From the IMG/VR virus record IMGVR_UViG_3300000557_000001: DNA of 52,548 bases, one strand, 5' to 3'. Source of the DNA: a virus. The notes under the pieces are model-generated. The model saw nothing but the letters and a program-made list of their open reading frames with translations. It was not told the origin of the DNA and ran no database searches. Positions 5,081 through 52,548 of the stretch are shown here, piece after piece (position 1 is the first letter of the stretch; each line of letters opens with the position of its first letter). The position numbers and the translations under genes are program-made.

Positions 5081-5596
5081 ATGGGTGAACAAGTAAACAG
5101 GTTAAACAAAGCGGCGTTATTACAGGGCCGGGATCAGGTGTTTTATGAATACTTTGAAGAACTGGACGGCGAAATAGCACTTGCGCCGCTTACCGACGGC
5201 CAATATTCACAGGCGGAAGCGGTCAGGGCAACGGGCGCTTCCATGAGTGGCCGGCCGGTTATGGATAAGGACGGCAACGTGGATCGGGCCGCGACAAGTG
5301 GGCAGCTTGAATTTAAAATTGATATGCAAGCTGCAGCAAACGCGGACTTTGAAGCTGATTGTTTGGCCGTGGCTTACAGCTTAAGCAATGGCAGCGGCGA
5401 GCAATGGACTGATCGGGAGGTTAAGGCGTTGCAGCCGCCGGGCATTGTCCACAAGATAGCTGCTAAAGTTTACGAAATAAGCGGTGCAAACCAGCAGCAG
5501 ATTGAGCAGGTGCGTTCCTTTCGCGGAAAGCGCGGAGGGGCAGAACATGATAAACCTTCATCTGGCAAGCGTTCCGCTGGTAAAAAGTCAAGCTGA
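5081..5596 (+). CDS. Tail assembly chaperone (gpG position)
   Basis: 171 aa, acidic; directly upstream of the tape measure gene; overlaps the next ORF. Confidence 0.6.
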   Translation: MGEQVNRLNKAALLQGRDQVFYEYFEELDGEIALAPLTDGQYSQAEAVRATGASMSGRPVMDKDGNVDRAATSGQLEFKIDMQAAANADFEADCLAVAYSLSNGSGEQWTDREVKALQPPGIVHKIAAKVYEISGANQQQIEQVRSFRGKRGGAEHDKPSSGKRSAGKKSS

Positions 5597-5774
5597 TATG
5601 ACGCCGCTGCAGCGCGCGTTCTTGGAAGCCGGCATTTCCTACGCTTACACAAAGCAACGGGAAGCCGTGTTTGGCAAGGGCGGCGCTGCAGGCGGCATGA
5701 GCAGCGGCGGATCGCATAAGGATAAACGGGAAGAAATGAAAAAGCGCACAGCGCAACGGAAAAGAGGTGGTTAA
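5547..5774 (+). CDS. Second tail-assembly protein (gpT position): independently initiated, or the distal part of a +1/-2 frameshift fusion with 5081-5596
   Basis: Internal SD GGAGGGG 7 nt before ATG 5547; its frame is +1 relative to 5081-5596; ends 2 nt before the tape measure start. Confidence 0.45.
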   Translation: MINLHLASVPLVKSQADMTPLQRAFLEAGISYAYTKQREAVFGKGGAAGGMSSGGSHKDKREEMKKRTAQRKRGG

Positions 5775-5776
5775 CG

Positions 5777-18976: not shown

Positions 18977-18991
18977 AGGGAGGGCTTGTTT

Positions 18992-19540
18992 ATGCAAGCG
19001 ATTTATCTTGCAGGTGCAATCAGTGAAGTTTCGCCTGAATACGCGGTTGGATGGCGCAGGGCGGCAGGGAGTTATTTAGAAAGGGCAGGCTTTAAGGTGT
19101 TTGACCCGACAAGCGGAAAGGATTTAACGCTGCCGGGCATTAACACGGATTATTATACTCCGGAGGGCATTGTAGAAGCAGACCTTGACGCTATATGGCA
19201 AAGTGATATAATACTTGCGGAAATAGCTTTAAAGGGCGTTGCTTACCACGGAACCAGCATGGAGCTTGCGTATGCTTACAACTGGAACAAGCTGGTTTTC
19301 GTTTGGGGCGGCGCGACCTCTTACTGGGTGCGATACCATGCCACGGAAATTTTCGATGAATTGACGGAAGCACTGGAAAGGATTGCAGCATTAAAGGTGC
19401 TTTGTGCGCCGGTTAACACAAAGGAGGAATTAAAGTTTGGACAACGAAACACGCAGAAAAAAGGTTTGGGATCTTTACTTACAGGGAGAAAGCTACAATG
19501 CGATCGGTTCAGAACTGGGCTTGAGCTTCCATCAAGTTAA
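18992..19540 (+). CDS. Nucleoside 2-deoxyribosyltransferase-like / dNMP N-glycosidase-like protein
   Basis: IYLAGAIS at the N-terminus and HGTSMELAYAYNWNKLVFVW (catalytic Glu context); the 3' ~100 nt overlap the next gene. Confidence 0.65.
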   Translation: MQAIYLAGAISEVSPEYAVGWRRAAGSYLERAGFKVFDPTSGKDLTLPGINTDYYTPEGIVEADLDAIWQSDIILAEIALKGVAYHGTSMELAYAYNWNKLVFVWGGATSYWVRYHATEIFDELTEALERIAALKVLCAPVNTKEELKFGQRNTQKKGLGSLLTGRKLQCDRFRTGLELPSS

Positions 19541-21564: not shown

Positions 21565-21640
21565 GCCGAAAACGGGCGGCAGTTAAGCTGCCGCCGTTAC
21601 ATTGCCGATTAGCCGCGGCAGTGCTGATGATGGCAGGCTA
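21565..21640 (+). ncRNA. Type II hammerhead ribozyme candidate A (predicted cleavage after 21599)
   Basis: GCC-GAA-[AACGGGCGGCAG..CTGCCGCCGTT]-A-[CATTGCCG..CGGCAGTG]-CTGATGA-t-GGC; stem I loop TAGCC can pair with GGCTA at 21636-21640. Confidence 0.75.
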
Positions 21641-21667
21641 AACAAAACTTTTAAAGGGGTGCTGAAA

Positions 21668-22513
21668 ATGAAAAAGATCGTTAACAGCTTTAATGAAGAA
21701 AGAACTTTTGGAGTAGAGATTGAGTTTGTGCATAACAACGCGGAGCAGGTTGCAGCTAAAGTGAGGGAATACGGGTTGGATTGCAGGGTTGAACATTATA
21801 ACCACGAAGATCGAACATGGTGGAAGATTGTTACCGACGCAAGCGTGCAGGCGCGGAACGGCCAGATTGGCCGCGGACTTGAAATTGTTAGCCCGATTTT
21901 AAAAGGCCGCGAAGGGCTTGCAGAAATTGAAACTGTTTGCGCCGCGCTGGAACAAGCTGGCGCCGACGTTAACGTTACAGCCGGCTTGCACGTGCATCAC
22001 GACGCAAGCGATTTTAACGTAAACAGCTTTAAAAACATAACCTTACTTTATACCCGTTACGAAAAAACAATAGACAGTTTAATGCCGCGCAGCCGCCGGG
22101 CAAACGGGAACCAATATTGCAAGAGCTTGTTTGATGCCCGGATGGGCAGCTTTAGCAGCGACGAAGCGTTTATGAATTGGATTTACAATGCCAGCAGCAC
22201 TGACCAACTGTTAAACTTTTTTACAGACCGGTTTTTAAAGCTTAACTTAAGGGCTTACCGGGCGCACAGCACGGTTGAATTTAGGCAGCACAGCGGAACG
22301 GTTGAAGCGCCGAAAATTATAAACTGGATTAAGTTAACGCAAGCAATGGTTAACAAGGCGACTGACCGCAACGTTTTGAACCCCAAAAACGTTGACGATA
22401 GCTGGAAAAGCTTTAAGAAAGCCGTTGCACTGACCGGATACCGCGGCGCTGACGAAGAACTGCAGCAAGTGCAGAAATTTTACGGCAAGCGCCAGAAGCA
22501 GTTAGCAAGCTAA
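21668..22513 (+). CDS. Amidoligase (glutamine synthetase-fold, Amidoligase_2-type)
   Basis: ATG 21668 behind AAAGGGGTG; RTFGVEIEF, GLEIVSPIL, AGLHVHHD. Confidence 0.75.
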   Translation: MKKIVNSFNEERTFGVEIEFVHNNAEQVAAKVREYGLDCRVEHYNHEDRTWWKIVTDASVQARNGQIGRGLEIVSPILKGREGLAEIETVCAALEQAGADVNVTAGLHVHHDASDFNVNSFKNITLLYTRYEKTIDSLMPRSRRANGNQYCKSLFDARMGSFSSDEAFMNWIYNASSTDQLLNFFTDRFLKLNLRAYRAHSTVEFRQHSGTVEAPKIINWIKLTQAMVNKATDRNVLNPKNVDDSWKSFKKAVALTGYRGADEELQQVQKFYGKRQKQLAS

Positions 22514-22516
22514 CAA

Positions 22517-22584
22517 GGCGAAAGCAGCGCGCACGACCGGCGCTGCTCTGCAGCGGTGGCGCCGCTGCACTGATGAGCCAGCCA
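22517..22584 (+). ncRNA. Type II hammerhead ribozyme candidate B (predicted cleavage after 22548)
   Basis: GGC-GAA-[AGCAGCGC..GCGCTGCT]-C-[TGCAGCGG..CCGCTGCA]-CTGATGA-GCC; stem I loop TGGC can pair with GCCA at 22581-22584. Confidence 0.8.
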
Positions 22585-22613
22585 GATAAAAAAAGGGGAA
22601 GGGAGTTGTTAAC

Positions 22614-23099
22614 ATGGAACGGACGGGCGTTAAGTTGGAGGGCATTGAACGGCAGTGGGAATTTATGTTAGCAGGGAACGCGCTGCTTACCATTGAAAAC
22701 GAACAGACCGGCAGCCGTTACACTTACCGGATTAAAGGCCGCAAGACTGGCAACGGCAAGATCCTTTACTTTGTTAACGTTTTAAGCGGCAGCAATAATG
22801 AAACGGATTATAGATACGTTGGAACCATATTTTTTGAAAAGGGCGCTGCAGAGGGTGAGTTTAGGCTTACCAGTAAAAGCAGGGTGAGCGCACAGTGCAA
22901 GAGCTTTAAGGCGTTTTACTGGTTGTTTAATATGCTGCAGCAAGGAAACGCGCTGCCGGAACATATTAACTTTTACCATGCCGGATCTTGCGGCAAGTGC
23001 GGCCGGACTTTAACAGTGCCGGAAAGCATTGAAACCGGACTGGGGCCGCATTGCCGGCAGAACATTGGAACAAGCGGATTGCGGACACTGGCAAGCTAA
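22614..23099 (+). CDS. Hypothetical protein with C-terminal CxxC..GxGPxC zinc-ribbon-like motif
   Basis: 161 aa; SD GGGAAGGGAG; SCGKCGRTLTVPESIETGLGPHCR. Confidence 0.6.
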   Translation: MERTGVKLEGIERQWEFMLAGNALLTIENEQTGSRYTYRIKGRKTGNGKILYFVNVLSGSNNETDYRYVGTIFFEKGAAEGEFRLTSKSRVSAQCKSFKAFYWLFNMLQQGNALPEHINFYHAGSCGKCGRTLTVPESIETGLGPHCRQNIGTSGLRTLAS

Positions 23100-25355: not shown

Positions 25356-25463
25356 ATGAACGAAGCAGCTTTTGATTTTTTTGTTAACTTTTGGTTGTTT
25401 GGCTTTATGTTATGGGTGCAAGGTGTTTGCATATATATTTTAAAAGTAAGAAGGGGTGAATAA
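25356..25463 (+). CDS. 35-aa hydrophobic micro-protein candidate (not in ORF track)
   Basis: ATG 9 nt after AAAGGAG; MNEAAFDFFVNFWLFGFMLWVQGVCIYILKVRRGE. Confidence 0.35.
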   Translation: MNEAAFDFFVNFWLFGFMLWVQGVCIYILKVRRGE

Positions 25464-25464
25464 C

Positions 25465-25953
25465 ATGGGCAAAAAAATGATATATTTCGCTTATGGCAGC
25501 AACTTAAACTTAAGGCAGATGAAGCAGCGCTGCCCGGACGCACGGCCGATCGGAGTGGCAAAGCTGCCCGGACACAGGCTGGTTTTCCGCGGCGTTGCTG
25601 ACGTGATACCTAACAGGCAGGGCGGATCGGTTATGGGTGTTATATGGGAAATAACGCCGCGCTGCTTAAAGGAGCTTGATCGTTATGAAGGTTATCCGCA
25701 TTTATACGGCCGGCGATACTGCACGGTGATCGGCGAAGATGACGGCATATTGCGCGAAGCGATCGTTTACTATATGAAGAAGGGCGATCTTGCGCCGCCG
25801 AGCCGCGGATACTGGAAGGTGATCATGGAAGGATATAATGACTTTTGCATGGTGCCACGGCGCGATCTGCTGGAACCGAATTATGGTTACGGGAACGCGC
25901 GGCTGGACTATGATTGCGAAAAGTATTATCAGAGCGTTTTGCATTGGTATTAA
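25465..25953 (+). CDS. Gamma-glutamylcyclotransferase-like (AIG2/GGCT fold) protein
   Basis: ATG 25465, 7 nt after GAAGGGGTG; FAYGSNLNLRQMKQRCP, LDRYEGYPHLY. Confidence 0.75.
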   Translation: MGKKMIYFAYGSNLNLRQMKQRCPDARPIGVAKLPGHRLVFRGVADVIPNRQGGSVMGVIWEITPRCLKELDRYEGYPHLYGRRYCTVIGEDDGILREAIVYYMKKGDLAPPSRGYWKVIMEGYNDFCMVPRRDLLEPNYGYGNARLDYDCEKYYQSVLHWY

Positions 25954-37194: not shown

Positions 37195-37728
37195 ATGGAC
37201 TTACCGGACAAAACGTATGAAATAATATACGCAGATCCGCCGTGGCAATATAAAGATCGCGCGCTGGCAGGCGAACGCGGCGCCGGGTGCAAGTATAAAA
37301 TTATGGATATTAAGGATATACAGGCGCTTCCGGTGCCGCGGATCGCGGCAGAAAACAGCGTGCTTTTTCTTTGGGCCACGTTTCCGCTTATTGATGAAGC
37401 CTTGACCACGCTGGCAGGCTGGGGCTTTATGTATAAGACCGCGGCGTTTGTTTGGGTTAAGCTTAACAAGCGGCAGCCGACGCCGTTTTGGGGAATGGGC
37501 AACTGGACACGGGCGAACGCAGAGGTTTGCCTGCTGGGCATTAAAGGCAATCCAAAAAGAGTTAATGCCGGTGTGCATCAGGTTATTATGACGCCGCGCG
37601 AAGAACACAGTAAAAAACCGGACGAAGCAAGGCGGCGGATCGTGCAGCTTTTAGGCGATCGGCCGCGGATCGAATTGTTTGCACGGCAAACGGCCGCCGG
37701 CTGGGATAGCTGGGGCGACGAATTATAA
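37195..37728 (+). CDS. MT-A70-family N6-adenine DNA methyltransferase
   Basis: 177 aa; IIYADPPWQY, FLWATFP, EEHSKKP, ELFARQTAAGWDSWGDE. Confidence 0.9.
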   Translation: MDLPDKTYEIIYADPPWQYKDRALAGERGAGCKYKIMDIKDIQALPVPRIAAENSVLFLWATFPLIDEALTTLAGWGFMYKTAAFVWVKLNKRQPTPFWGMGNWTRANAEVCLLGIKGNPKRVNAGVHQVIMTPREEHSKKPDEARRRIVQLLGDRPRIELFARQTAAGWDSWGDEL

Positions 37729-38844: not shown

Positions 38845-41289
38845 TTGGAATTAAAACGGATGAAGCTTGAAGAAATAACGCCTGCGGAGTATAATCCGCG
38901 CGTGGATTTGCAGCCGGGCGACCCTGAATATGAACGGCTGCGCAAAAGTTTGCAGGAGTTTGGGCTGGTTGATCCGCTGGTATTTAACAAGCGCACGGGG
39001 CGCCTTGTAGGCGGACATCAGCGCGTTAAGGTGCTGCAGGATCTTGGTTACACAGAAGCGGACGTCAGTTTGGTTGACCTGCCGGCGGAAAAGGAGCAGG
39101 CCTTGAACCTTGCGCTTAACAAGATCGAAGGGCGCTGGGATGAAGATGCGCTGCGCGATGTTTTGGATAATATTAATAAGTGGATCGATGAAGAAATGCC
39201 GGACTTTGATATTGAAGCAACTGGTTTTTCGGAGCAGGAAATAGACGATCTTATAGGCGATACGGAAGGGCTTATGGACGGCGCTGATTACATGGACGGC
39301 GACGGGCAAAGTTTGGCAGAGCGCTTTGTCGTGCCGCCATTTACGGTATTAGACGCGCGGCAGGGTTACTGGCGGCAGCGAAAAGAGGAATGGTATGCAA
39401 AGGGCATTATAACGGAGGCCGGCAGGGAGGATCTTGACGATACCACGGCTTCCGGTTGGGTGAGCCGCGGCAGGGATCAGGGCGGCAGCGCGTTTGATCC
39501 GGTGCTGGCAGAAATAGCGTTTAAATGGTTCTGCCCGGAAGGCGGCGCAGTGCTTGATCCGTTTGCCGGCGAAAGCACGAAGGGCATCGTGGCCGGGCTG
39601 CTGGGCTTTAGTTATACAGGCGTTGAAGTTAGGAAGGATCAGGTGGACGCCAATTACAGGCAGCTTGAAGCAATGCCGGAAAAACCGGGCGGCGAAGTGC
39701 GTTGGATCACTGGCGACGCTGCAAAGCTGGAAAGCGTTTTGCCGCAAGGGCAGGAGTATGATTTTATTTTTACCAGTCCGCCTTATTATGACTTGGAGGT
39801 TTACAGCAGTGAAGAAGCCGACGGCAGCACGTTTGGCAGTTATGCTGAATTTATGGCGTGGTATGAGCATATCTTTAAGCAGGCCGTTGCGCAGTTAAAG
39901 GAAAACGCCTTTGTTGTGGTAAAAGTGGGCGAAATACGCGATAAAAAGACCGGCGCTTACCGGAACTTCGTGGGTGATAACATAAGCTGCTTTAAAGGGC
40001 TGGGCTTGCATTACTACAACGAAGCGATCTTGGTTACTCCGGTCGGCAGCTTACCGCTGCGCGCCGGGCGGCAGTTTGAAGCAAGCCGCAAGCTGGGCAA
40101 GGCGCATCAGAATATCCTTGTATTTTACAAGGGCGACCTTAATAAAATTAAGGATCTGCAGTTTGTGGAAGTTGAACTGGACGAAGATGGCAGCGTTACG
40201 CTGGAAAGCGAAGCGGAAACTGCTGCAGGCGATGGCGCGCAGGTGCAGGCTGCAGACGGCGGCGGCGGCAACGTAAAGATGAAGCTGGGCAAAGTGGCCG
40301 ACAATGCGCTGCCGCGCGAAGCTATGGAGTTATATAACGCAACGGGATCGGTGCCTTTTGCAAAAAAGTTTAACGCCTGCCCGGAACTGGGCGAATATTT
40401 AAAGCTGGTTTACGGTGCAGGCGATCAAGAGCTTACACTGCAAGAAGTTGATTGCCCGAAGCCGATACCGTTACAGGATAACGGAACCTGCTGGGTGAGT
40501 TTTACCGGTGGGAAGGACAGCGTGGCTGCAGCGATCAGGGCGCAGGAGCGCGGTTACAAGGTGATCCCTTATTACTTGCAGGGCATTAACCGGGGCGTCG
40601 CCGATGAACTGCACTATGCGCAGAAGATCTGCGACCGCATGGGTTGGCCGCTGGTTGTAGATAAGATCAGTATTAGCGGCAAAAAAAGCGGCGTTGTAGA
40701 AATGCCGACCAAAAATCAAGTCATTGTTTTGTGTATGCTGGGGCGCATGGCAGAACAGGGCGGCGCAGCTTGGACGGCCGGTTATCACGAAGATACGGCG
40801 CAGGCGGAACGCGGCTGGGGCTTTGACTTTAGCGACGGCGACAAAGCGGTTGCGCTGTTTAACGCTTACCTTGAAAAGCGCGTGCCGGGTGTTAAGTTCT
40901 TAATGCTGCTGCAAGATACGCTTGAATGCTGGGCTTTGTGCGCGGACTATGGACTAATCAACTATATTAAAGGCTGCGCTTGTCAGCCACGGTTTAAGGA
41001 AATGCGCCGGAAGAAGAATGTTGAAAAGTTCGGCGCTGCTAATATACTGCACGGCCGCTGCGGAAGCTGTATAAAGTGCGCGTGGGAACAGGTTGCACTT
41101 CAACGGCTGGGCATAGTGCCGGAAAGCCGCGCGGTTAGACAGCACGGCTTGAAGTTCTTGGAGCAGTTTAAAAGTGTTTGGAATACCGGCGGCCGGGATA
41201 TGGAAAATTATTTAGTGCCGCAAAGCAGGGCCGAACAGGAAAAACAGGCAAGGCGTGGCCGGTGGCCGAAGCAGCCGATGCCTGATTAA
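38845..41289 (+). CDS. Triple fusion: ParB-like N-terminal domain, SPPY-type DNA methyltransferase, PP-loop ATP pyrophosphatase (PAPS-reductase/QueC-like)
   Basis: 814 aa, TTG 6 nt after GGAGGTGG; EYNPR..GGHQR; DPFAGESTKG and FTSPPYYD; SFTGGKDS; C-terminal CGSCIKC. Confidence 0.85.
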   Translation: MELKRMKLEEITPAEYNPRVDLQPGDPEYERLRKSLQEFGLVDPLVFNKRTGRLVGGHQRVKVLQDLGYTEADVSLVDLPAEKEQALNLALNKIEGRWDEDALRDVLDNINKWIDEEMPDFDIEATGFSEQEIDDLIGDTEGLMDGADYMDGDGQSLAERFVVPPFTVLDARQGYWRQRKEEWYAKGIITEAGREDLDDTTASGWVSRGRDQGGSAFDPVLAEIAFKWFCPEGGAVLDPFAGESTKGIVAGLLGFSYTGVEVRKDQVDANYRQLEAMPEKPGGEVRWITGDAAKLESVLPQGQEYDFIFTSPPYYDLEVYSSEEADGSTFGSYAEFMAWYEHIFKQAVAQLKENAFVVVKVGEIRDKKTGAYRNFVGDNISCFKGLGLHYYNEAILVTPVGSLPLRAGRQFEASRKLGKAHQNILVFYKGDLNKIKDLQFVEVELDEDGSVTLESEAETAAGDGAQVQAADGGGGNVKMKLGKVADNALPREAMELYNATGSVPFAKKFNACPELGEYLKLVYGAGDQELTLQEVDCPKPIPLQDNGTCWVSFTGGKDSVAAAIRAQERGYKVIPYYLQGINRGVADELHYAQKICDRMGWPLVVDKISISGKKSGVVEMPTKNQVIVLCMLGRMAEQGGAAWTAGYHEDTAQAERGWGFDFSDGDKAVALFNAYLEKRVPGVKFLMLLQDTLECWALCADYGLINYIKGCACQPRFKEMRRKKNVEKFGAANILHGRCGSCIKCAWEQVALQRLGIVPESRAVRQHGLKFLEQFKSVWNTGGRDMENYLVPQSRAEQEKQARRGRWPKQPMPD

Positions 41290-41897: not shown

Positions 41898-42626
41898 ATG
41901 GGAACCTGCTGGCAGTATATACAACGGCAAAAGTTCGCTGCCGAAGGGCTGCCGGCAGGGCTGCAGCCGGATCAGTTAAAGCCACGCCTTGCGCACGTTG
42001 CACGGATCAGCAAGGATCAGGCGCGCGCGGTTATCCTGAAATATGAATGGCTGGGAACAATGGCGCAAACGGGCCTTCATTATGGCATATTTTACGGCGA
42101 TCACTTGGCAGGCGTTACTTGCGTCAACGTGGGCGGCGCCGGGGCGGCCGGTGTTAACAGTCATAAGGAGTTTAACCTGCAGCGCGATCAGGTGGCTTAT
42201 TTAGCGCGCGGCGCTTGCGTTCACTGGGCGCCGACCGGAACTAACAGCCGCCTTGTTAGCATAACGGCGCGCATGGTTGCAAAGGACAGCGCTGCAAAGG
42301 TGCTGCTTGCATACGCTGACCCGGCTGCCGGGGAGATCGGAACAATATATCAGGCTTGCAACTGGTATTATATAGGCAGAACGTGGCCGGGCCGGCGCTG
42401 GGTGTCGCCTGATGGGCAAAAGGATCGCGATTGGAAATATCCTTATGATCTTAAAAAACAGCGCGGAAAAACTCGTAAACACTGGGCGGACTGGTTAAAG
42501 GCGCAGGGCTGGACTGTTAAGGTGCTGCAGCCGAAATATAAATACGTGGCAATCTTGGACAAGGGCGACCCGGATCTGTTAAAATTGATTAAGGGAAAAG
42601 CGCAGGATTATCCTAAAAAAGTTTGA
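41898..42626 (+). CDS. GNAT-fold, Mom/DUF4338-like candidate DNA base-modification enzyme
   Basis: 242 aa; KYEWLGTMAQTGLHYGIF.., LLAYADPAAGEIGTIYQACNWYYIGRT; family assignment from memory of the motif only. Confidence 0.4.
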   Translation: MGTCWQYIQRQKFAAEGLPAGLQPDQLKPRLAHVARISKDQARAVILKYEWLGTMAQTGLHYGIFYGDHLAGVTCVNVGGAGAAGVNSHKEFNLQRDQVAYLARGACVHWAPTGTNSRLVSITARMVAKDSAAKVLLAYADPAAGEIGTIYQACNWYYIGRTWPGRRWVSPDGQKDRDWKYPYDLKKQRGKTRKHWADWLKAQGWTVKVLQPKYKYVAILDKGDPDLLKLIKGKAQDYPKKV

Positions 42627-43842: not shown

Positions 43843-44403
43843 ATGGGCAAGCGGCATGACTGGGAACCGGTAAAAAGTGAATATATAGAAGGCTATACGG
43901 ACAGCGACGGGAACCATGTTTGGCCGACGTTGCAGCAGTTAAGCGAACGGCATGGTATAAGCGAAAGCACTATGCGCAAGCGCGCGTCGCAGGAGGACTG
44001 GGCCAATGAACGGAACATTTTCCGGCAAAGAGTGGAACACAAACGGCAAGAAAAGCGCGCTGAACATTTAGCCGGCAAGGCGAGCGAGTTTGACGCAACG
44101 ATCTTCCGGGCGTCGGAAACGGCGACAAAACATATACAGGCGCATCTTGCGCAGGCAAGCGAACGCTTTCGGCAAAGCGGCGGCCGGGATCCGATGCCGC
44201 TGGCACAGTTGGAACAACTTGCAAAAAGTTTGGAACGTTACCAGAAGATCGGGCGCCTTGCACTGGGCGAAGCGACCGATATAACGGAGGGCGACGAAGA
44301 TGGCACAGACCAGATCATTATCAAGGAACTCGTCGGCGACCCCGACGTTGCAGCAAAAGTTAAAGAACTATTCCGATCAAGAACTGCTGAAAGAACTCGC
44401 TAA
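43843..44403 (+). CDS. terS: Terminase small subunit candidate
   Basis: 186 aa; HTH-like TLQQLSERHGISESTMRKRAS; directly upstream of, and overlapping, the large terminase gene. Confidence 0.6.
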   Translation: MGKRHDWEPVKSEYIEGYTDSDGNHVWPTLQQLSERHGISESTMRKRASQEDWANERNIFRQRVEHKRQEKRAEHLAGKASEFDATIFRASETATKHIQAHLAQASERFRQSGGRDPMPLAQLEQLAKSLERYQKIGRLALGEATDITEGDEDGTDQIIIKELVGDPDVAAKVKELFRSRTAERTR

Positions 44404-45865
44404 ACAGGATTATTCGTTTTATTGCGAATACACGCATAAGGGCTTATATAAGCCGGCGCGGCATTTACAATTAATTGCAGATCGGCTGACGGAGGTTGCG
44501 TTGGGTGATCTGCAGAAAATAATGTTTTTATTGCCGCCGCGGCACGGCAAGAGCATGACCGTTACTGAAACGTTTCCTTCTTACTTTATAGGCAAGGATC
44601 CGGAGCGCCGCGTTATGGCGATCAGCTATGGCAGCTTCCTTGCACAGAAATTCGGCCGGGCCAATAGGCAAAAAGTGATTGACTTTGGCCCGGCTTTGTT
44701 TGATATACAGGTTAACAGGGATCATTCCAGTTCAACGAACTGGGGAATTAAAGGGCATCGGGGCGGCATGATCAGCGCAGGGCTGGGCAGTGGGATCACT
44801 GGCGAAGGTGCCGACCTGCTAATAATAGATGACCCGATTAAGAACCGCAAGGAAGCGGACAGCGTTACTTACCGCGAAAACTTATGGCACGAATGGCAGA
44901 ACACGCTTGTTCCGCGGTTGCAGCCGGGCGGCGCAGTTATACTTATATTGACCCGGTGGCATGAGGACGATCTGGCAGGGCGCCTGCTGGAACATGAGCC
45001 TGACGAATGGGAGGTTTTTAGTTTGCCGGCGCAGTGCGAAGAACCGGAAGCGGATCTGCTGGGCAGGCAGCAAGGCGAATATCTTTGGCCGGGCGTTGGC
45101 TTTGACCATGACTGGGGCGAAAAGCGGAAGAAGGAAGTTGGAACGCGCGCTTGGAACGCGCTTTACCAGCAGCGGCCGGCGCCGAACACGGGTGCAATAT
45201 TGAAGCGGCATTGGTGGAGGTTTTGGTGTTATAAAGGGCAGGCCGATGATTTAAAGCCGGTTACGCTGCCAATACCAGAAGCGGAAGGCGGCGGCTTTAT
45301 TGAACGGGCTGCAGAGGAATTGCCTGAAAGTTTTGATAGCATGGCGCAGAGTTGGGATATGGCATTTAAGGATCACAGCGACAGCAGTTATGTTGTCGGG
45401 CAGGTTTGGGCTGCAAAGGGATCGCAGTATTATGTCAAGGATCAGATCCGCCGGCAGCTTAACTTCCCGGCCACGGTTAAGGCGCTTGAGCAGTTATCGC
45501 TTAAGTGGCCGGAAACGCGTGCAAAGTGGATCGAAGATAAGGCAAACGGGCCGGCAGTTATACAGCAGCTTCAAGGCAAGGTTAGCGGCATGATTGCAGT
45601 TAGGCCGGACGGCAGCAAGGAAGCGCGCGGCCACGCAGTTTCACCCATTGTAGAAGCTGGCAACGTTTACCTTCCTCATCCATCCCTTGCGCCGTGGGTC
45701 TGGGATCTGATTGAAGAATGCGCCGTTGCGCCTTATGGCGCGACTGATGATATGTTTGACGCCTTAACGCAGGCGTTAACACGGTTAACACAGCAAAGCA
45801 GCACGCGGCACGCGCGCGCGGCAAGCAGTGCAGGCAGCGCAAAGCGTGGCCGGCGGCGCAAATAA
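44300..45865 (+). CDS. terL: Terminase large subunit
   Basis: 521 aa; Walker A LPPRHGKS, LLIIDDP (Walker B), C-terminal nuclease-type acidic residues; ATG 8 nt after GGAGGG. Confidence 0.85.
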   Translation: MAQTRSLSRNSSATPTLQQKLKNYSDQELLKELAKQDYSFYCEYTHKGLYKPARHLQLIADRLTEVALGDLQKIMFLLPPRHGKSMTVTETFPSYFIGKDPERRVMAISYGSFLAQKFGRANRQKVIDFGPALFDIQVNRDHSSSTNWGIKGHRGGMISAGLGSGITGEGADLLIIDDPIKNRKEADSVTYRENLWHEWQNTLVPRLQPGGAVILILTRWHEDDLAGRLLEHEPDEWEVFSLPAQCEEPEADLLGRQQGEYLWPGVGFDHDWGEKRKKEVGTRAWNALYQQRPAPNTGAILKRHWWRFWCYKGQADDLKPVTLPIPEAEGGGFIERAAEELPESFDSMAQSWDMAFKDHSDSSYVVGQVWAAKGSQYYVKDQIRRQLNFPATVKALEQLSLKWPETRAKWIEDKANGPAVIQQLQGKVSGMIAVRPDGSKEARGHAVSPIVEAGNVYLPHPSLAPWVWDLIEECAVAPYGATDDMFDALTQALTRLTQQSSTRHARAASSAGSAKRGRRRK

Positions 45866-45883: not shown

Positions 45884-47530
45884 GTGCCTTATAAAGACCC
45901 GGAGAAGAAACGGGAACACGCAAGAACTTATAACAAGCAGAAGCGCGAACAGCAAAAGGCTGCAAGCAATGCTCCGCGGCGGCCGTTTTGTTATGTAACA
46001 AAGGAAGGGCGCACAGTGCGCGAAGATGTTTTGGATCAATACGCAGTTAAATCGGAGGAAGGCTCCCGGCAGATGGCGGCGGATCGTTTTGCGGATCACT
46101 ATGGGCCAGAAAACGTTATTAAGCCGCTTTACAATCCCGAAGCAATGGCTGGCATATTGGAGATCAATACATTCCACGCGCGCTGCACAGCGGTCAAAGC
46201 GCGCGACGCTGCTGGGCTTGGGTGGGAATTGGAGCCAGTTGTGGAGGATCCTTCCCCGACGCAAAAGGAGCAGCTTAAGGAGTTCTTTGATCAGCAGGGC
46301 TTAACAGCGACCTTTTACCGGCATCAATACGATATTGAAGCCGTGGGATACGGGGCGTTGGAAGTTGTGCGCGCAGATCACAGCGCGGACGGCTTACCGA
46401 TTAAGTTTTACCATATCCCGTCGCATACGCTGCGAATGCACAGCGGCGGCGAAAAGGTTGTGCAGCGCCGGGCTGGTAAAAAGCGATACTTTAAACTTTA
46501 CGGCGTGGAAAAGGATATTGATTACAAGACTGGGCTGGAGCATGAACTGGGCAGCTTACCGGCGGATCGCAGGGCCACGGAAGTCCTTTGGAACAGCTTG
46601 TATTCGCAGCGGTCGGACTTTTACGGGATCCCTGACATAGTGCCGGCGCTGGGCGCTGTTCATGGCGACCTTGCACGGCGCGATTATAACCTTAATTTCT
46701 TTGATAATTTCGGCGTGCCGGCTTATGCTGTATTTATCACGGGCGATTATGATCCGGGGCCGGTGGATCCTGATACTGGGAAAACGGAACTGGAAGAAGA
46801 AATTGAAAATCACCTGCGCAAGCTGGCGGACGAACCGCACAGCACGCTCATTTTAACGGTGCCGACGCGCGAAGGTGCAAACAATGATGTCAAGATTGAG
46901 TTTCAGCCGTTGGCAGTGGAAACAAAGGACGCAAGCTTTAGGCTTTACCGCAAGGACAACCGGGATGAAATTGTCGTTGCGCACGGCGTTCCGCCTTATA
47001 GGATCGGGCTTGCGGAAACCGGATCTTTGGGTGGCAGCACTGCAGCGGAAAGCACGCAGATTTATAAAGACAGCGTTATTAAGCCGCGGCAGGAAATACT
47101 TGAAGAAATGGTTAACATGGTTGTCCGTGAAGGCTTTGAAATAACGGACTGGCGCTTTAAGTTTGCGGAAATAGACACGGAAGATGAACAGCACGATGTT
47201 CAGATGGTTATGCACTTGTTCAGTATGGGCGCGATGCGGATCCGTGATGTTATACAGCGCTATGCGGATAAATACGGGCTGGAAGATGACCCGGATGATC
47301 CGCTGCTTGATACGCGCTTTGTGGGTGGACAGCCGCTTACACAAGAGCGCATTGAACCACGGCAAGCGCAGCAGATGCAGGCGGCGATGCAAAGCTTGCA
47401 AGATAAACTCTTAAAGGTGGCGATCAAAGATGGACACAGCTACGGCCTTGAAAATGGCGTTGATCTCGGAGATCGAAATGCGCCGGGCAGCGCTAAAGGT
47501 GGAACGGATGGAATGGACGGCGTGGGCTGA
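45884..47530 (+). CDS. Portal protein
   Basis: 548 aa, GTG 8 nt after AAAGGAGG; YGIPDIVPALGAVHGDLARRDYNLNFFDNFGVPAY; position after the large terminase. Confidence 0.85.
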   Translation: MPYKDPEKKREHARTYNKQKREQQKAASNAPRRPFCYVTKEGRTVREDVLDQYAVKSEEGSRQMAADRFADHYGPENVIKPLYNPEAMAGILEINTFHARCTAVKARDAAGLGWELEPVVEDPSPTQKEQLKEFFDQQGLTATFYRHQYDIEAVGYGALEVVRADHSADGLPIKFYHIPSHTLRMHSGGEKVVQRRAGKKRYFKLYGVEKDIDYKTGLEHELGSLPADRRATEVLWNSLYSQRSDFYGIPDIVPALGAVHGDLARRDYNLNFFDNFGVPAYAVFITGDYDPGPVDPDTGKTELEEEIENHLRKLADEPHSTLILTVPTREGANNDVKIEFQPLAVETKDASFRLYRKDNRDEIVVAHGVPPYRIGLAETGSLGGSTAAESTQIYKDSVIKPRQEILEEMVNMVVREGFEITDWRFKFAEIDTEDEQHDVQMVMHLFSMGAMRIRDVIQRYADKYGLEDDPDDPLLDTRFVGGQPLTQERIEPRQAQQMQAAMQSLQDKLLKVAIKDGHSYGLENGVDLGDRNAPGSAKGGTDGMDGVG

Positions 47531-48332
47531 AAATAGGCTTGCGGCGCGGTTGCGCCGTTTGCTGGGCAGCGCCTTTGATGAAGTCCTAACAAAACTGCAG
47601 CAGCGCGGCCGGGTGCCTTCCGACAGTGCAGCGCAGCAGGCTTTACTTGCAGCACTGCGCAAAAAGGAGCCGGAGTTTATTAGTATAATCCAGAACGCGG
47701 CGCTGGATAGCGCAGGGCGTGGCCGTCAGCAGGTTTACGACTACGCGAAAACAGTGCCACACGCTCCGGATTTTACCGCGCGCGAGTTTAGCGAACGGGT
47801 TAAAAAGCTTATCAAGGATCACGCCTTTGAAGCAAGCGAGCGCACGATGGCACGTATGCGCGGCGACGTTATGGGCAATTTAGCGCGCAGCTATGAAGAA
47901 GGGCTGGGGATCCGTGATGCTGCAGACCGGCTGCGCGATCAGTTTGATAGTATGGAGGAATACGAATTAAAGCGCGTTGCGCGCACGGAAACAAACAGTT
48001 TTCAAAACATGGGCGCGCATGAAACCTGCCGGGAGCTTACCAATTATGAGCAGTGGTGGGGTGCAGACGATGATCGCAGCCGTGGCACGGAGCCGCAAGA
48101 CTTGGCCGATCATACGCTGGCAGGTATGCACGGCCAGATCGTGGCCGTGGATGATCCGTTTAGCAATGGGCTGCAGTATCCGGGCGATCGCAGCGGCGGC
48201 GAAGCTACAATCCATGAGTGGATCAACTGCCGCTGCCGCGTGGTTCCGTTCTTTATTCCGCAAGGTTACAAGGCGCCGCCGGGCGCAACTTACTTTTATG
48301 AATATGACCTTGTTTACGTGGGTGATGATTAA
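47430..48332 (+). CDS. Head morphogenesis protein (SPP1 gp7 / Mu F-like)
   Basis: 300 aa; ELKRVARTETNSFQNMGAHE and WINCRCRVVP. Confidence 0.8.
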   Translation: MDTATALKMALISEIEMRRAALKVERMEWTAWAENRLAARLRRLLGSAFDEVLTKLQQRGRVPSDSAAQQALLAALRKKEPEFISIIQNAALDSAGRGRQQVYDYAKTVPHAPDFTAREFSERVKKLIKDHAFEASERTMARMRGDVMGNLARSYEEGLGIRDAADRLRDQFDSMEEYELKRVARTETNSFQNMGAHETCRELTNYEQWWGADDDRSRGTEPQDLADHTLAGMHGQIVAVDDPFSNGLQYPGDRSGGEATIHEWINCRCRVVPFFIPQGYKAPPGATYFYEYDLVYVGDD

Positions 48333-48416: not shown

Positions 48417-48445
48417 TTGACAGGAGGTGTTCGGCGATGTAAACT
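48417..48445 (+). promoter_or_regulatory. Sigma70-type promoter candidate for the tRNA-like RNA
   Basis: TTGACA - 17 nt - TAAACT, 21 nt upstream of the RNA 5' end. Confidence 0.5.
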
Positions 48446-48466
48446 ATAACCAGAAGCTTTATAGCT

Positions 48467-48543
48467 GGGGCCGGTTTGGGATCGGCAAGTGTTAACGCCT
48501 GCAAGGCAGCGCTTGTATCCGGGTTCAACTCCCGGCGGCTCCA
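48467..48543 (+). ncRNA. 77-nt tRNA-Ala-like RNA resembling the tRNA-like domain of tmRNA
   Basis: Acceptor GGGGCCG/CGGCTCC with G3:U70, T arm CCGGG-TTCAACT-CCCGG, discriminator A; no canonical anticodon arm found by eye; T7 run 18 nt downstream. Confidence 0.55.
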
Positions 48544-48599
48544 TCAGCAACGGAACTGCAGTTTTTTTATAAGCTTGGAAAAAGGAGGTGTTCTATTTA

Positions 48600-50249
48600 A
48601 TGCCATTAGACAAACATTCCATTGAAGAAAAACTACGCAAGATCAGCAATGCGCTTGAAATGAACTCTGGTTTAGCAGACCCTCTGCCGGTTGCAACTTA
48701 TGGCGATAATGTTATTGTTAAGGACTACGGCAACGATGGGGAGCTTTACCAGCTTCAATATTCGGAAGTGAACGGCGAAATAGTGTTTGGGCAGCCGGCG
48801 CCGGTGGACGTTGCATACGTGCAGAAGCAGCTTTTAGAGCAGAACCCGAACGCTGCAGCTAAAGACGTTCAAAGCTTAATTGATACTTGGAGCGAGTGGG
48901 CCGGCGGCTTTAGTGAATGCGTGGCAGCACTGGCGGACAAGCCGGGGATCGATAATCCCGAAGCTTTGTGCGCTTGGTTGCATTATCAGGCGGAAGGCAA
49001 GTGGCCGGCGGAAGCTGCTGCAAACGCGGCAAAGGACAAGGACGCGGAGCTTACCGGGCCAATTGTATATAAGAATGATGCAAAGCGGATCGCATACGCG
49101 GCCGTCTTAGTGCCGGGCGAACCGGATCATGATGGCGAAACGGTTAGCGCGGAGCAGGTTGAAAAGGCTGCGCATGAATGGATGGAGCTTTATAGGAACG
49201 TTGACCTGCAGCACAGCTTGAACAACGTGGGCGTTCCGGTTGAAAGTTATCTGCTGCCGCAAGCAATGACCGTTAAATCGCTTGACGGGCAGGATCTTGA
49301 ATTGCCTGCCGGAGCTTGGATCTTGGGCAGCAAGGCCACGGATGACGAAACTTGGGGCCGCGTAACAAGCGGCGAACTTACTGGATATTCTGTTATGGGA
49401 ATTAAGCGCACGGCTGGCAAGTCTATTGATAAGGACGCGGCATTTAAACGAACCCTGCTCGGTGATTTGGGTGAAGATTGGGTGGCCGCGTTTGTTAGTT
49501 TTGTCGATCAGCCGGCCGTTCCGAAGGCAAAGTTTTTCGCGCTTAAAAGTAAAGCGCCGGAGCCGGGCAACGGTGGACAGAAAAAAGGAATACTGCAAAG
49601 GTTTGTCGAAAGCTTAAAAGGCGGCGATCAGGCTGGCAAAGCCGGCCGGCAGTTTAGCGATGATAATTATACAAAGCTGCAGCAACTTAAAAATCAGGTT
49701 GCGGACGCCTTGCAAGAACTTAACGGGTTGATTAAAGTGGCCGAACAGGAAAGGGCTGGCGGCAATGCGTATGACGCGAACTTTAATTCCGGGAAAGGAG
49801 GCGATGCTGACATGACTAAAGAAGAACTGTTAAAGGCAATTAAAGAGGATCCTGAAACAAAGGAAGCTTTAAAGGCTGCGCTTGCAGAGGAAGATCAGGG
49901 CGCCGGGGATCAGGGCGATCAAAACGATCAGAATGATCAAGGCAGCAATGATCAAAACGCTGCAGGCAAAGATCAGGATCAGGGCGATGCTGGCGATCAG
50001 GATCAGGGCGATCAGGATCAAGGCAGCGGCGGTGATACCGAAACGGTGTCTAAAGAAGATTATGATCAGCTTAAGGCTGATTATGACGCTTTAGCGGAAA
50101 AGGTTGAAAAGGCGCTGGGAACCGGCAGCCGTTCTATTAAAGGGCAAGACGGCAGCGACGACGATACCAGCACAAACGCGAAGAAGCGCGCTGAACTTTG
50201 GGGCCGGGATGGTTTTGGCCGGCGCAGGCGCGATCTTGAAGATAAATAA
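48600..50249 (+). CDS. XkdF-like prohead protease/scaffold fusion with a D/Q/G-rich low-complexity linker
   Basis: ATG 48600 after AAAGGAGGTG; RIAYAAVLVPGEPDHDGETVSAEQVEKAAHEWM; DQGDQNDQNDQGSNDQ..; coiled-coil C-terminus. Confidence 0.7.
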   Translation: MPLDKHSIEEKLRKISNALEMNSGLADPLPVATYGDNVIVKDYGNDGELYQLQYSEVNGEIVFGQPAPVDVAYVQKQLLEQNPNAAAKDVQSLIDTWSEWAGGFSECVAALADKPGIDNPEALCAWLHYQAEGKWPAEAAANAAKDKDAELTGPIVYKNDAKRIAYAAVLVPGEPDHDGETVSAEQVEKAAHEWMELYRNVDLQHSLNNVGVPVESYLLPQAMTVKSLDGQDLELPAGAWILGSKATDDETWGRVTSGELTGYSVMGIKRTAGKSIDKDAAFKRTLLGDLGEDWVAAFVSFVDQPAVPKAKFFALKSKAPEPGNGGQKKGILQRFVESLKGGDQAGKAGRQFSDDNYTKLQQLKNQVADALQELNGLIKVAEQERAGGNAYDANFNSGKGGDADMTKEELLKAIKEDPETKEALKAALAEEDQGAGDQGDQNDQNDQGSNDQNAAGKDQDQGDAGDQDQGDQDQGSGGDTETVSKEDYDQLKADYDALAEKVEKALGTGSRSIKGQDGSDDDTSTNAKKRAELWGRDGFGRRRRDLEDK

Positions 50250-50294: not shown

Positions 50295-51299
50295 ATGGGT
50301 AAAGGACAATACACAAACGCTGAACTTTTGGCACGTGTTGACGGTGCGTTTAAGGCGATCACAGTTGGCGACTTGGACGAAGGTATTTTAACTCCGGACA
50401 AGTTTGATCAGTTTGTGCGCGTTATTCAGCGGAGGACGCGGATCTTGGATGAAGCTCGGTTTATACCTATGGACAGTCAGCAGGTGGAAATCGACCGTGT
50501 TGGCTTTGTTGGCCGGGTGCTGCGCGCAGGGCTTGAAAGCGATAAAACTTCTCACAAAACGTTGGAGGAAGGCGATCACGTTAAGCCGGAGTTTTGGAAC
50601 AATAAACTTATCGCGCAGGAATTGCAGGCCATTACTGGTATAAAGGATCAGGCTTTAAGGCGGAACATTGAACGCGGCAACTTTGAAGATACGTTGCTGG
50701 ACTTGTTCGGTGAAGCTGCAGGCCGCGACCTTGAGGAATTTAACGTTCGGGCAGATACCGATACTGCTTATGGCACGGACGCCGTTTTAAGCTTGACTGA
50801 CGGCTGGGCAAAGCTTGCGGAGAACCATATTTACGGGCAGAACGGCGACTTTGATCCTTCTGATAGCGATGCTTATCCCGAAAATATGTTTGAAGCGCTG
50901 CTTAGTGCCATTCCTAAAAAGTATCTGCAGAACCGTTCTGAATGGCGTTTTTATGTTGACTGGGACGTGGAAAACGCTTACCGGAACCTCTTGCGTGAGC
51001 GTCAGACCAGCTTGGGTGATGCCGCAACTTTACAGCATCAGGATTTAACTTACAAGGGTATCCCTGTTCGTTATGTTCCTATGCTGGAACGCGATAACGC
51101 TTCTCAAGGCGATATTGCAATGCTGCAGCATCCCGATAACATGGTTTGGGGCTTGTTCCATGAGGTTACGATTGAACGGGATCGGATACCTAAAGAACGG
51201 CGCACGGATTTCGTGTTAACGCTGGAAGGCGACGCTCACTATGAAGATGAAAACGCCGCGGTTGTGGCGCACATCGATAAAAGCTCGCCTGAAAGTTAA
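50295..51299 (+). CDS. Major capsid protein
   Basis: 334 aa; SD GAAAGGAGG; position after the protease/scaffold gene; size and composition typical of HK97-fold capsid proteins. Confidence 0.75.
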   Translation: MGKGQYTNAELLARVDGAFKAITVGDLDEGILTPDKFDQFVRVIQRRTRILDEARFIPMDSQQVEIDRVGFVGRVLRAGLESDKTSHKTLEEGDHVKPEFWNNKLIAQELQAITGIKDQALRRNIERGNFEDTLLDLFGEAAGRDLEEFNVRADTDTAYGTDAVLSLTDGWAKLAENHIYGQNGDFDPSDSDAYPENMFEALLSAIPKKYLQNRSEWRFYVDWDVENAYRNLLRERQTSLGDAATLQHQDLTYKGIPVRYVPMLERDNASQGDIAMLQHPDNMVWGLFHEVTIERDRIPKERRTDFVLTLEGDAHYEDENAAVVAHIDKSSPES

Positions 51300-51803: not shown

Positions 51804-52548
51804 GCATAAATCAAGTTATACACGGTGATTGCTTAGAAGTCATGCCATCACTGCCCGATAAAAGTATAGACATGATTTTATGCGATTTACCTTACGGCAC
51901 AACTGCTTGTAAATGGGATAGCATAATACCGTTTGAACCGTTATGGGCAGAATATAAACGGTTGATAAAAGATAATGGTGCGATAGTGTTGACGGCAGAC
52001 CAACCATTTACAAGTGTATTGATAACAAGTAATTTATCTGATTATAAATACCGTTGGGTTTGGGATAAAATGCGGGGCGTTGGACATTTAAACGCAAGGC
52101 ATAGACCAATGATGAGCGCAGAAGACATTTGCGTTTTTTGTGACGGTGTGACAAAATACAACCCACAAATGCGGGAAAGGGAAAACCCCCGTAAAAGTAA
52201 AAACTATGGAACACAAGAATGTTATGGTAAGACAAGAGATATCTTTGACGGTGAGGTTTTAATGGAAAAGCACCCTATCAATATTTTAAGGTTTAGTAAA
52301 TCAGAACAATCAGATATGTTATTACACCCTACACAAAAACCCGTTGCCCTGTTTGAATATCTAATTAAAACCTACACCAATGAAGGTGAAACGGTATTAG
52401 ATAATTGCGCAGGTTCAGGAACAACAGCAATAGCCTGCATAAACACTAACCGCAATTATATCCTAATCGAGAAGTATAAAAAATATGTAGATATGATCAA
52501 CGAGCGAATATCCGAGCACGAACAGCAGGCATCATTATTTGGAGGCGA
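51800..52548 (+). CDS. DNA methyltransferase, beta-class N6-adenine/N4-cytosine type; the ORF runs off the window end and finishes at nt 111 (252 aa in total)
   Basis: ATG 51800 (ATGA overlap); DLPYG (DPPY-type motif IV) early, HPTQKP, DNCAGSGTT (motif I) late; absent from the ORF track because there is no stop before the window end; much lower G+C than neighbours. Confidence 0.9.
   Translation, partial: MSINQVIHGDCLEVMPSLPDKSIDMILCDLPYGTTACKWDSIIPFEPLWAEYKRLIKDNGAIVLTADQPFTSVLITSNLSDYKYRWVWDKMRGVGHLNARHRPMMSAEDICVFCDGVTKYNPQMRERENPRKSKNYGTQECYGKTRDIFDGEVLMEKHPINILRFSKSEQSDMLLHPTQKPVALFEYLIKTYTNEGETVLDNCAGSGTTAIACINTNRNYILIEKYKKYVDMINERISEHEQQASLFGG
52448..52548. repeat. Second copy of the 101-nt terminal overlap
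   Basis: Identical string to nt 1-101. Confidence 0.95.

Follow-up and report, generated by a model that had tools for sequence, protein, structure and literature searches.

A predicted tag-less, alanine-accepting tmRNA in the head-operon leader of a phage genome, and its relatives in other phages

Introduction

Bacteria rescue stalled ribosomes mainly by trans-translation, which is also a candidate target for antibiotics; to our knowledge, the way in which phages handle it is almost unexplored. The present study concerns a 77-nt element of IMG/VR virus record IMGVR_UViG_3300000557_000001, a stretch of 52,548 nucleotides that is referred to, at its full length, as the window. From its sequence, this element (48467-48543, + strand) is predicted to be a transfer-messenger RNA (tmRNA) that consists of the alanine-accepting tRNA-like domain (TLD) without the messenger part, and hence without a tag; it is termed mini-tmRNA below. 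The window would then extend to a new phage lineage a kind of RNA previously known from one phage, and this kind seems to be much more widely distributed than the searched literature records.

The phage in question is DS6A, which is listed as “TLD only” by Hudson et al. 2014 (PMC4131195); passages in PMC4131195 and PMC11915505 place the report of its RNA in 2009. The relevant passage of PMC11915505 states that the DS6A form, expressed in E. coli, inhibits endogenous tmRNA, and that of PMC4131195 ascribes the inhibition in the same experiment (Mao 2009) to “a similar molecule”, perhaps acting by titration of SmpB. A passage in PMC3895274, citing Shimizu and Ueda 2006, adds that a TLD-only RNA accepts peptidyl transfer in vitro. 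DS6A is the only phage named in a 2025 tmRNA database paper that searched RefSeq viruses, and the same paper describes tmRNAs lacking the coding sequence (CDS) in jakobid mitochondria and two plastids (PMC11915505).

The DS6A RNA (tmRNA Website entry Phage__Mycobacterium.9) resembles the window RNA in its 7-bp acceptor stem, G3·U70, A73, T arm and lack of an encoded CCA. The architecture is also the same, comprising in DS6A a D-loop analogue that ends in UCGAC, a P2 helix of 7-8 bp, an A-rich bulge and the hairpin CCG-CACG-CGG. The two differ in lineage (an integrase-carrying actinophage versus an apparently integrase-free Bacillota-type phage), in place (between gp33 and the DNA polymerase III gene versus the leader of the head operon) and at the junction, where DS6A has A19•G with C and the window has G19·U50 with U52. 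Bacterial tmRNA (SsrA, Rfam RF00023) shares with the window RNA the alanine acceptor, the stemless D loop, the tandem non-canonical junction at the base of P2 and the T arm. Unlike SsrA, the window RNA has no pseudoknots, resume codon, tag frame or stop codon and is ~300 nt shorter; without a messenger part it cannot complete trans-translation alone.

The tmRNAs of jakobid mitochondria and the ~65-bp tmRNAs of Mallomonadaceae plastids are likewise TLDs without a tag frame (PMC11915505). These organellar forms are inherited vertically and are presumed to be helpful to the organelle together with imported SmpB, whereas the phage form is horizontally mobile, carries its own bulge/hairpin module and presumably acts against or around the host system. 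Phage tRNAs and full-length phage tmRNAs (e.g. those of Bxz1-type mycobacteriophages and Kumao) are also phage-borne translation genes; the mini-tmRNA differs from the former in having no anticodon arm and from the 407-nt tmRNA of Kumao in having no messenger part.

Architecture of the window RNA

The initial annotation, made from the sequence of the window alone, described the element as a promoter-driven RNA resembling a stand-alone TLD of tmRNA. Its parts are as follows.

48467-48543 (+): mini-tmRNA (Rfam RF00023, family models R1 and R2; no ARAGORN call)
48467-48473 (+): 5' strand of the acceptor stem, GGGGCCG, including G3 of G3·U70; pairs with 48536-48542 in the fold
48474-48483 (+): D-loop analogue GUUUGGGAUC, with conserved GG and UC and without a D stem
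48484-48493 (+): 5' strand of the P2-like helix, GGCAAGUGUU; pairs with 48508-48517 in the fold
48494-48496 (+): A-rich bulge AAC (family consensus (U)AAA)
48497-48507 (+): apical mini-hairpin GCC-UGCAA-GGC (fold)
48508-48518 (+): 3' strand of P2, AGCGCUUGUA, then the junction nucleotide U52 (family junction consensus ...GGAC)
48519-48535 (+): T arm CCGGG-UUCAACU-CCCGG (fold)
48536-48543 (+): 3' strand of the acceptor stem, CGGCUCC, with U70, and discriminator A73 (read from the sequence)

The minimum free energy (MFE) fold of the 77 nt consists of a 7-bp acceptor stem with G3·U70 and an unpaired 3' A, 11 unpaired nucleotides where a D arm would be, a long helix interrupted by a 3-nt bulge and topped by a small hairpin, and a T arm. 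Sequence and fold thus bear out the acceptor stem with its wobble, the T arm and the discriminator A of the initial annotation. The fold also contains the helix CAAGTG/CGCTTG capped by GCC-TGCAA-GGC that the annotation had drawn, and this helix can be extended to 8-10 pairs. All of the alanine identity set (G1-C72, G2-C71, G3·U70 and A73) is present. A73 is followed by UCA and CCA is not encoded. Neither the fold nor the sequence of the window RNA contains a 5-7-5 anticodon arm, a tag open reading frame (ORF) or pseudoknots, again as first annotated: there is a single closed P2 hairpin, 77 nt are too short for PK1-PK4, and in place of the messenger domain (resume codon, tag frame and stop) 14 nt replace 308 positions of the Rfam model. 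The D-loop analogue aligns column for column with the Rfam tmRNA consensus AucuGGaUUC, and the base of P2 is formed by G18•A51, G19·U50 and C20-G49. As the folding z-score of the window RNA alone is a modest -2.05, support comes from homology and covariation and not from folding energy.

Assignment to tmRNA

Rfam family RF00023 (tmRNA) matches 48467-48546 with 50.1 bits (E = 7e-17; gathering threshold 47), the match spanning model positions 1-374 with 308 of them deleted, and it wins the competition within the tRNA clan (cmscan, best family kept). The features of a tRNA-like domain are found together: an acceptor with G3·U70 and A73, a T arm, a stemless D loop and a non-canonical junction at the base of P2. 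ARAGORN calls no tRNA, no tmRNA and no tag peptide in the whole window, so that no ordinary tRNA is returned. The fold has neither the D stem nor the 7-nt anticodon loop of a tRNA-Ala cloverleaf, its apical loop measuring 3-5 nt.

R2 is a covariance model made from alignment A4, which does not contain the window and whose source pattern misses it. It aligns to the window RNA over positions 1-79 of 79 with 56.7 bits (E about 1e-11), as compared with 63.2 bits for DS6A, 31 bits for a tRNA-Ala-like gene on contig L001 and at most 24 bits for ordinary phage tRNAs. Family model R1 gives 70.2 bits for the window RNA and 62.5 bits for the DS6A copy, which lies at JN698994 28478-28557 and is unannotated in that record; both models match both RNAs from end to end.

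L001, the only IMG/VR match to the exact 3' 23-mer of the window RNA, was considered as a homologue and rejected as an odd tRNA-Ala-like gene (31-34 bits). We also note that this gene (L001 7143-7211, - strand) sits in a 23-gene phage tRNA array and combines the acceptor GGGGUCG/CGGCUCC with the loop UUCGCAU and an aberrant D region; Rfam calls no tRNA there at the gathering threshold, and the 3' 23 nt are identical to those of the window RNA.

The ssrA-like 3' end pointed out in the initial annotation is real, the last 27 nt having 88.9% identity to enterobacterial ssrA 3' ends. An attP site or ssrA fragment was nonetheless rejected as the origin of the segment: both the 5' and the 3' half are present and pair together, and the site is inside the head module. 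No integrase is found in the 37 window ORFs scanned with Pfam. The idea that the segment simply repeats the ends of host ssrA was rejected for reasons of structure and family membership alone: hundreds of unrelated phage contigs retain both halves as well as the conserved interior module.

A family of mini-tmRNAs in phages

Relatives were collected by two scans of IMG/VR. Scan 1 required the 5' end of the TLD, a gap of 15-45 nt and then the T arm with the acceptor 3' end; its pattern fixed G1-G4, U70-A73, the T loop and parts of the D loop, and it gave at least 119 loci of one architecture. Scan 2, anchored on TCGAC...GGAC and the T arm only and leaving the acceptor end free, gave at least 120 loci, and 84 of the 109 unique sequences among the matches listed did not fit the scan 1 pattern. 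The two scans together list more than 220 loci, 190 of which are confirmed by covariance model: all 99 tested loci of scan 1 by R2 (48.9-89.6 bits) and 91 of 100 loci of scan 2 by R1 (72 distinct sequences). Rfam calls each of 14 sampled members tmRNA, with 57-80 bits. ARAGORN overlaps 4 of the 119 listed scan 1 loci and miscalls them tRNA-Glu or tRNA-Arg; this failure on nearly all members explains why the family is unannotated in phage genomes.

The listed scan 1 sequences are 57-87 nt long, mostly 77-80 nt. From the 5' end, members have the acceptor stem, a D-loop analogue ..GG..UCGAC, a 7-8-bp helix and an A-rich bulge, followed by a small hairpin, the 3' strand of the helix, the GGAC junction, the T arm and the acceptor 3' strand with its A; a shorter class of 59-68 nt is without the apical hairpin. 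CCA is encoded in 33 of the 109 unique listed members from scan 2.

This structure is supported by covariation. RNAalifold recovers the acceptor, P2 and T helices from 82 unique sequences, with compensatory changes in 11 of 19 pairs. When pairs are counted over the 72 distinct sequences, 98.1% of cells are paired versus 68.7% in shuffles, and the covariation score is 0.714 versus 0.129 in shuffles and 0.06-0.10 in slid controls. Pairs that covary freely are acceptor pairs 4-7, six pairs of P2 and the two outer pairs of the T stem, the last being paired in 100% of cells. Over these two analyses, covariation is seen at all seven P2 pairs.

The interior was compared among 154 unique listed members. 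Each of the first three positions beyond the helix is A in 68-78%, and a mini-hairpin is present in 136, mostly as 3 bp with a CNNG-type tetraloop, e.g. CACG or CAUG; the mean MFE of the interior core is -2.28 kcal/mol versus -0.83 ± 0.10 in shuffles. The A-rich bulge and the mini-hairpin are probably a module for an extra contact or for stability. Stop triplets occur at the helix/bulge junction in 97 members versus 49 ± 5 in shuffles and are absent in 37% of members; stop-codon mimicry in the bulge is speculation. With an apical loop that varies in this way the UGC at the loop apex of the window RNA is not conserved, and the unusual tRNA-Ala offered as one possibility in the initial annotation is rejected. 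Its principal proposal, a stand-alone TLD of tmRNA, is sustained by the Rfam result, by the lack of a tRNA call from ARAGORN and by a covarying family that includes DS6A.

In the GTDB representative genomes (596 Gb) the scan 1 pattern gives 37 matches, about 20 of them true members (at least 57 bits), on contigs of metagenome-assembled genomes (MAGs) of many phyla, including a Clostridia MAG. Set against at least 119 loci in a far smaller viral collection, this indicates that the form is strongly virus-enriched. BLAST with family members finds full-length copies in cultured Streptomyces phages; in LuckySocke (82.4 bits) and Shaeky (79.8 bits) the mini-tmRNA occupies unannotated gaps inside tRNA gene arrays. 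The TLD-only form is therefore frequent among uncultivated phages, and cultured Streptomyces phages carry it without annotation; the usual annotation of phage genomes with ARAGORN overlooks it, and the cultured Streptomyces and Mycobacterium phages are immediate experimental systems.

Across the family the RNA is found near head protease/scaffold genes, DnaB, HNH endonucleases and endolysins and in tRNA arrays, and the neighbouring genes are mostly co-oriented and about 100 nt off. The mini-tmRNA behaves as stand-alone mobile cargo. RNA ligase genes were seen in two of the cultured phages that carry it, namely DS6A gp76 (L128/L129, 49300-50502, RtcB-like) and LuckySocke gp61 (L270 4179-5078), which is annotated “RNA ligase” and adjoins the tRNA array; the co-occurrence is an anecdotal one, and no gene of this type is present in the window.

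Some further observations concern variants and look-alikes. Twelve sequences of alignment A2 (L012, L014, L026, L029, L044 and others) have the acceptor GGGGUGG / CACCUCC, which contains U5•C68 and G6•A67 mismatches in the standard register, or else is shifted by one position with G2·U, and which is conserved across diverse members. On contig L219, two weak matches to YrlA, a bacterial Y RNA-like, tRNA-mimicking RNA, occur between tRNA genes at 2042-2169 (+) (38-40 bits; gathering threshold 69), ~140 nt upstream of the mini-tmRNA of that contig. A separate class of ~68-nt RNAs on genome contigs (L131-L135, L138, L139, L147, L151, L159, L163 and L165) has TLD-like ends, GGGG..G....GG...CG[GC]C ... 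T arm ... UCCA, with an interior loop GUCAA, UUGACA or similar, and scores 32-53 bits with the mini-tmRNA model. These RNAs sit on chromosomal contigs of Eremiobacterota, Dehalococcoidia and candidate phyla radiation (CPR) bacteria and may be unusual tRNAs without a D arm.

Alanine identity and the SmpB-side junction

G3·U70, A73 and G2-C71 make up the identity set of tRNA-Ala and tmRNA. In alignment A2 neither G3·U70 and A73 nor the T loop varies, but the scan 1 pattern had fixed these positions, and their constancy there was discarded as evidence. With the acceptor end left free, the 109 unique listed members from scan 2 have U70 and C71 in 108 cases each and C72 and A73 in all 109; in the 72 distinct sequences G1-C72 and G2-C71 are present throughout and G3·U70 in 71. 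That the wobble is never “repaired” while its neighbours vary argues for selection for recognition by alanyl-tRNA synthetase, and to judge from these counts the conserved acceptor end indicates selection for alanine charging. Such strict conservation of the charging determinants points to a step that needs alanine, i.e. to action on the ribosome, and not only to titration of SmpB.

The side of the molecule that would face SmpB is conserved as well. G12, G13, U16 and C17 are invariant in A2, where U16 was free and G12, G13 and C17 were fixed by the pattern; scan 1 fixed C17, G18 and C20. The pattern-free positions U16, G49 and A51 are invariant or nearly so and match upper-case positions of the Rfam tmRNA consensus, in which the base of P2 is G•A, A•G, C-G. 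Position 19 and its non-canonical partner vary together (A19 with G, U19 with C, C19 with U), and G19 pairs with U in the window and in L321. An IMG/VR scan for junction variants gave 48 matches, mostly chance; the sole family member among them, L286, has a UCGGC junction but is divergent and carries G3-C70. The one scan made of the metagenome collection gave one clear member, L321 (52.2 bits), which has the junction UCGGC...GUAA and a UUAAC bulge as in the window while its acceptor, P2 and hairpin differ. The junction of the window is thus best read as a compensated, recurring variant and not as decay.

Genome setting and the head-operon promoter

With its first ~101 nt (1-101) repeated at 52448-52548, the window is a complete phage genome of ~52.4 kb that was assembled as a circle; its GC content is 0.506, and nearly all genes are on the + strand. 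The mini-tmRNA lies inside the head module, between the MuF-like gene and the prohead protease gene.

43843-44403: small terminase
44300-45865: large terminase
45884-47530: portal
47430-48332: MuF-like head protein
48417-48445 (+): sigma-70-type promoter TTGACA-17-TAAACT (promoter scan, 10 of 12 consensus matches)
48446-48466 (+): short 5' leader with AAGCTT at 48454-48459 (small local hairpin in the transcript fold)
48544-48599 (+): 3' trailer into the ribosome-binding site of the protease gene, with AAGCTT at 48571-48576 and AAAGGAGGT at 48581-48589
48600-50249 (+): XkdF-type prohead protease / scaffold-like protein (Pfam PF14550, 1.7e-25; PHROG head maturation protease, 4e-42)
50295-51299: capsid-like protein

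The promoter was found where the initial annotation had put it. Relatives of the window identified through the protease or the MuF-like protein (L002-L008; 37-62% protein identity) contain no tmRNA-like RNA, even at permissive thresholds. The same TTGACA-17-TAAACT stands immediately before the protease ribosome-binding site in the relative L008/L002, and L003 and L004 have similar promoters at the equivalent place. The promoter is accordingly best taken as the conserved promoter of the prohead protease/capsid operon, with the RNA as a putative passenger in its 5' leader. The term “promoter-driven” therefore holds in that a promoter exists and fails in that it is not private to the RNA but belongs to the late head operon. 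As relatives keep the promoter without the RNA, the latter was most simply inserted into the leader of a pre-existing head operon, and its absence from L002-L008 means that it is not a trait of this phage lineage.

Downstream, the U run at 48562-48568 has no G+C-rich hairpin and the trailer folds only with weak U/A pairing; no intrinsic terminator after the mini-tmRNA is called or seen in the fold of the trailer, and we infer read-through into the protease gene. AAGCTT with an adjacent TATA is present on both sides of the RNA, a 6-nt repeat that is not beyond chance; the pair could be an insertion scar or serve short pairing between leader and trailer.

The DNA of the locus has no match among GenBank phages. 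The best matches of the large terminase (TerL) are from phages of Bacillus, Faecalibacterium, Listeria and Staphylococcus (45-49% identity), and no prophage relatives were found in GTDB genomes. The TerL identities and the ribosome-binding site AAAGGAGGT suggest a host in the Bacillota. Pfam identifies replication and DNA-modification genes among the 37 ORFs scanned, and no SmpB, RtcB, Pth or ArfB in that set.

Proposed mode of action and alternatives

We hold, with moderate confidence, that the mini-tmRNA, charged with alanine and bound to SmpB, would compete with host tmRNA late in infection. Transcription would start at the sigma-70-type promoter of the head operon, and the RNA would form the 5' leader of the protease/capsid mRNA, a position that would provide large amounts when the structural genes are expressed. 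RNase P may then trim the 5' end, and an RNase Z-type cut after A73 followed by the CCA-adding enzyme would complete the 3' end. Host alanyl-tRNA synthetase could charge the product by way of G3·U70, A73, G1-C72 and G2-C71. The D-loop analogue, the UCG(A/G)C...G(G/U)A junction and the T loop are expected to bind host SmpB, and EF-Tu the charged acceptor/T arm. The resulting complex would compete with host tmRNA-SmpB for SmpB and stalled ribosomes; with no resume codon or tag frame it would give no host proteolysis tag, and trans-translation would be blocked or short-circuited. Of the roles listed in the initial annotation, a decoy for alanyl-tRNA synthetase, SmpB and EF-Tu is the one best supported.

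Several points weigh against the competitor model. According to a passage in PMC4131195, a non-chargeable TLD likewise strongly inhibited tmRNA; simple titration of SmpB then leaves the strict conservation of the alanine set unexplained, and the result points to a ribosome step beyond what a decoy model specifies. No partner gene emerges, there being no protein family beside the RNA in more than 8 of 120 listed loci. The window RNA has the rare junction UCGGC...GUAU, with U52 replacing the unpaired C, for which the viral and metagenome collections gave L321 as the sole further example; its Rfam score is the lowest seen because of G19·U50 and U52.

The conserved alanine identity turns the idea of an “SmpB sponge” into a testable question, namely whether charging and the ribosome are needed, and the same question applies to the CDS-less organellar tmRNAs. 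It also bears directly on productive rescue without a tag, in which the alanine-charged mini-tmRNA with SmpB would accept the nascent chain in a stalled ribosome. The chain could be released with one extra alanine through ArfB/BrfA-type factors, drop-off and Pth, or host tmRNA, or could receive several alanines through repeated rounds; the phage would gain ribosomes recycled without the host degradation tag, or a minimal alanine tag of its own. We consider this unlikely. A strict identity set for alanyl-tRNA synthetase argues that charging is needed, which pure SmpB titration would not require (PMC4131195), and this reading accords with the in vitro peptidyl transfer to TLD-only RNA mentioned in PMC3895274, with the retention of CDS-less tmRNA together with SmpB in jakobid mitochondria and the existence of natural two-residue Ala-Ala tags (PMC11915505), and with the enrichment of stop triplets at the helix/bulge junction (97 of 154 versus 49 ± 5). 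However, no release mechanism is encoded, with neither a Pth- nor an ArfB-like gene in the 37 scanned ORFs of the window; the 37% of listed members without a stop triplet do not fit, a bulge of 3-4 nt with a helix on either side would probably not extend as far as the decoding centre, the UAAA motif may be a structural feature and no more, and the sole experiment on such an RNA reported in the passages cited gave inhibition and not rescue. A broader conjecture, which we regard as doubtful, is that mini-tmRNAs are a widespread and overlooked phage system that acts on the ribosome and not just as a sponge for SmpB; alanine-charged and loaded by host SmpB and EF-Tu, they would add template-free alanine at stalled ribosomes, once or repeatedly. 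If this were true, truncated phage proteins and ribosomes would be freed from ssrA tagging, or would be given a minimal phage-controlled alanine tag, and the A-rich bulge and hairpin would stand in for the missing messenger part.

Competition with host tmRNA must also be set against readings in which the rescue machinery is not the target. A decoy or sponge for host factors away from the ribosome (SmpB-like sensor domains of CoCoNuT systems, RNase R or tRNA-targeting nucleases) is quite improbable: defence systems with SmpB-like domains are predicted (PMC11090510), tRNA and tmRNA fragments act in an anti-CRISPR complex and bind RNase R (PMC11662646), stand-alone mobile cargo without fixed neighbours is typical of counter-defence genes, and RNA ligase genes are also present in DS6A and LuckySocke, but nothing observed in this analysis connects a mini-tmRNA with a defence system, a nuclease would find no anticodon loop to target, and a passive decoy leaves the conservation of the alanine set unexplained. 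The place of the RNA between operon promoter and ribosome-binding site, without a terminator, and the mostly co-oriented family neighbours about 100 nt away would suit a tRNA-like fold that acts as an RNase P / RNase Z signal defining and stabilising the 5' end of the protease/capsid mRNA. We think such mRNA punctuation very improbable, as close relatives have the same operon and promoter without the RNA, many members are in tRNA arrays and not in leaders, and neither G3·U70 and A73 nor the SmpB-type junction and the apical module would be needed for this role. Hardly credible is a degenerate phage tRNA-Ala or a functionless relic of host ssrA ends (attP, imprecise excision), to which the UGC in the apical loop of the window, its lowest Rfam score, the common use of ssrA 3' ends as phage attachment sites and the annotations of tmRNA pseudogenes and attP among the matches might be thought to point. 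Structural and family evidence already contradicts it: there is no D arm or 7-nt anticodon loop, ARAGORN is negative, the apical loop varies in the family (CACG, CAUG, GCAA and others), covariation is seen in both halves and in the interior at hundreds of loci, no integrase is present in the 37 ORFs scanned, and the rare junction is a compensated change that recurs in L321.

Other observations on the window and its closest relative

A type II hammerhead ribozyme is matched at 22516-22587 (+) of the window with 42.4 bits (Rfam gathering threshold 37), between an amidoligase gene that ends immediately before it (21602-22513) and the next ORF (22614-23099). A further set of genes is located at 18986-19540, 21602-22513, 25456-25953, 37195-37728, 38845-41289 and 41898-42626. 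They comprise a nucleoside 2-deoxyribosyltransferase, the amidoligase, a gamma-glutamyl cyclotransferase-like protein, an MT-A70 methylase, an 814-aa protein with an N6/N4 methylase domain and a Mom-family protein, a set that suggests DNA hypermodification. In L008, the closest relative, the MuF-like protein (3989-5950, +) has 653 aa, as compared with 300 aa in the window, owing to a C-terminal extension of ~350 aa that is not in the window protein; by analogy with other MuF fusions, this extension may be a cargo or toxin domain.

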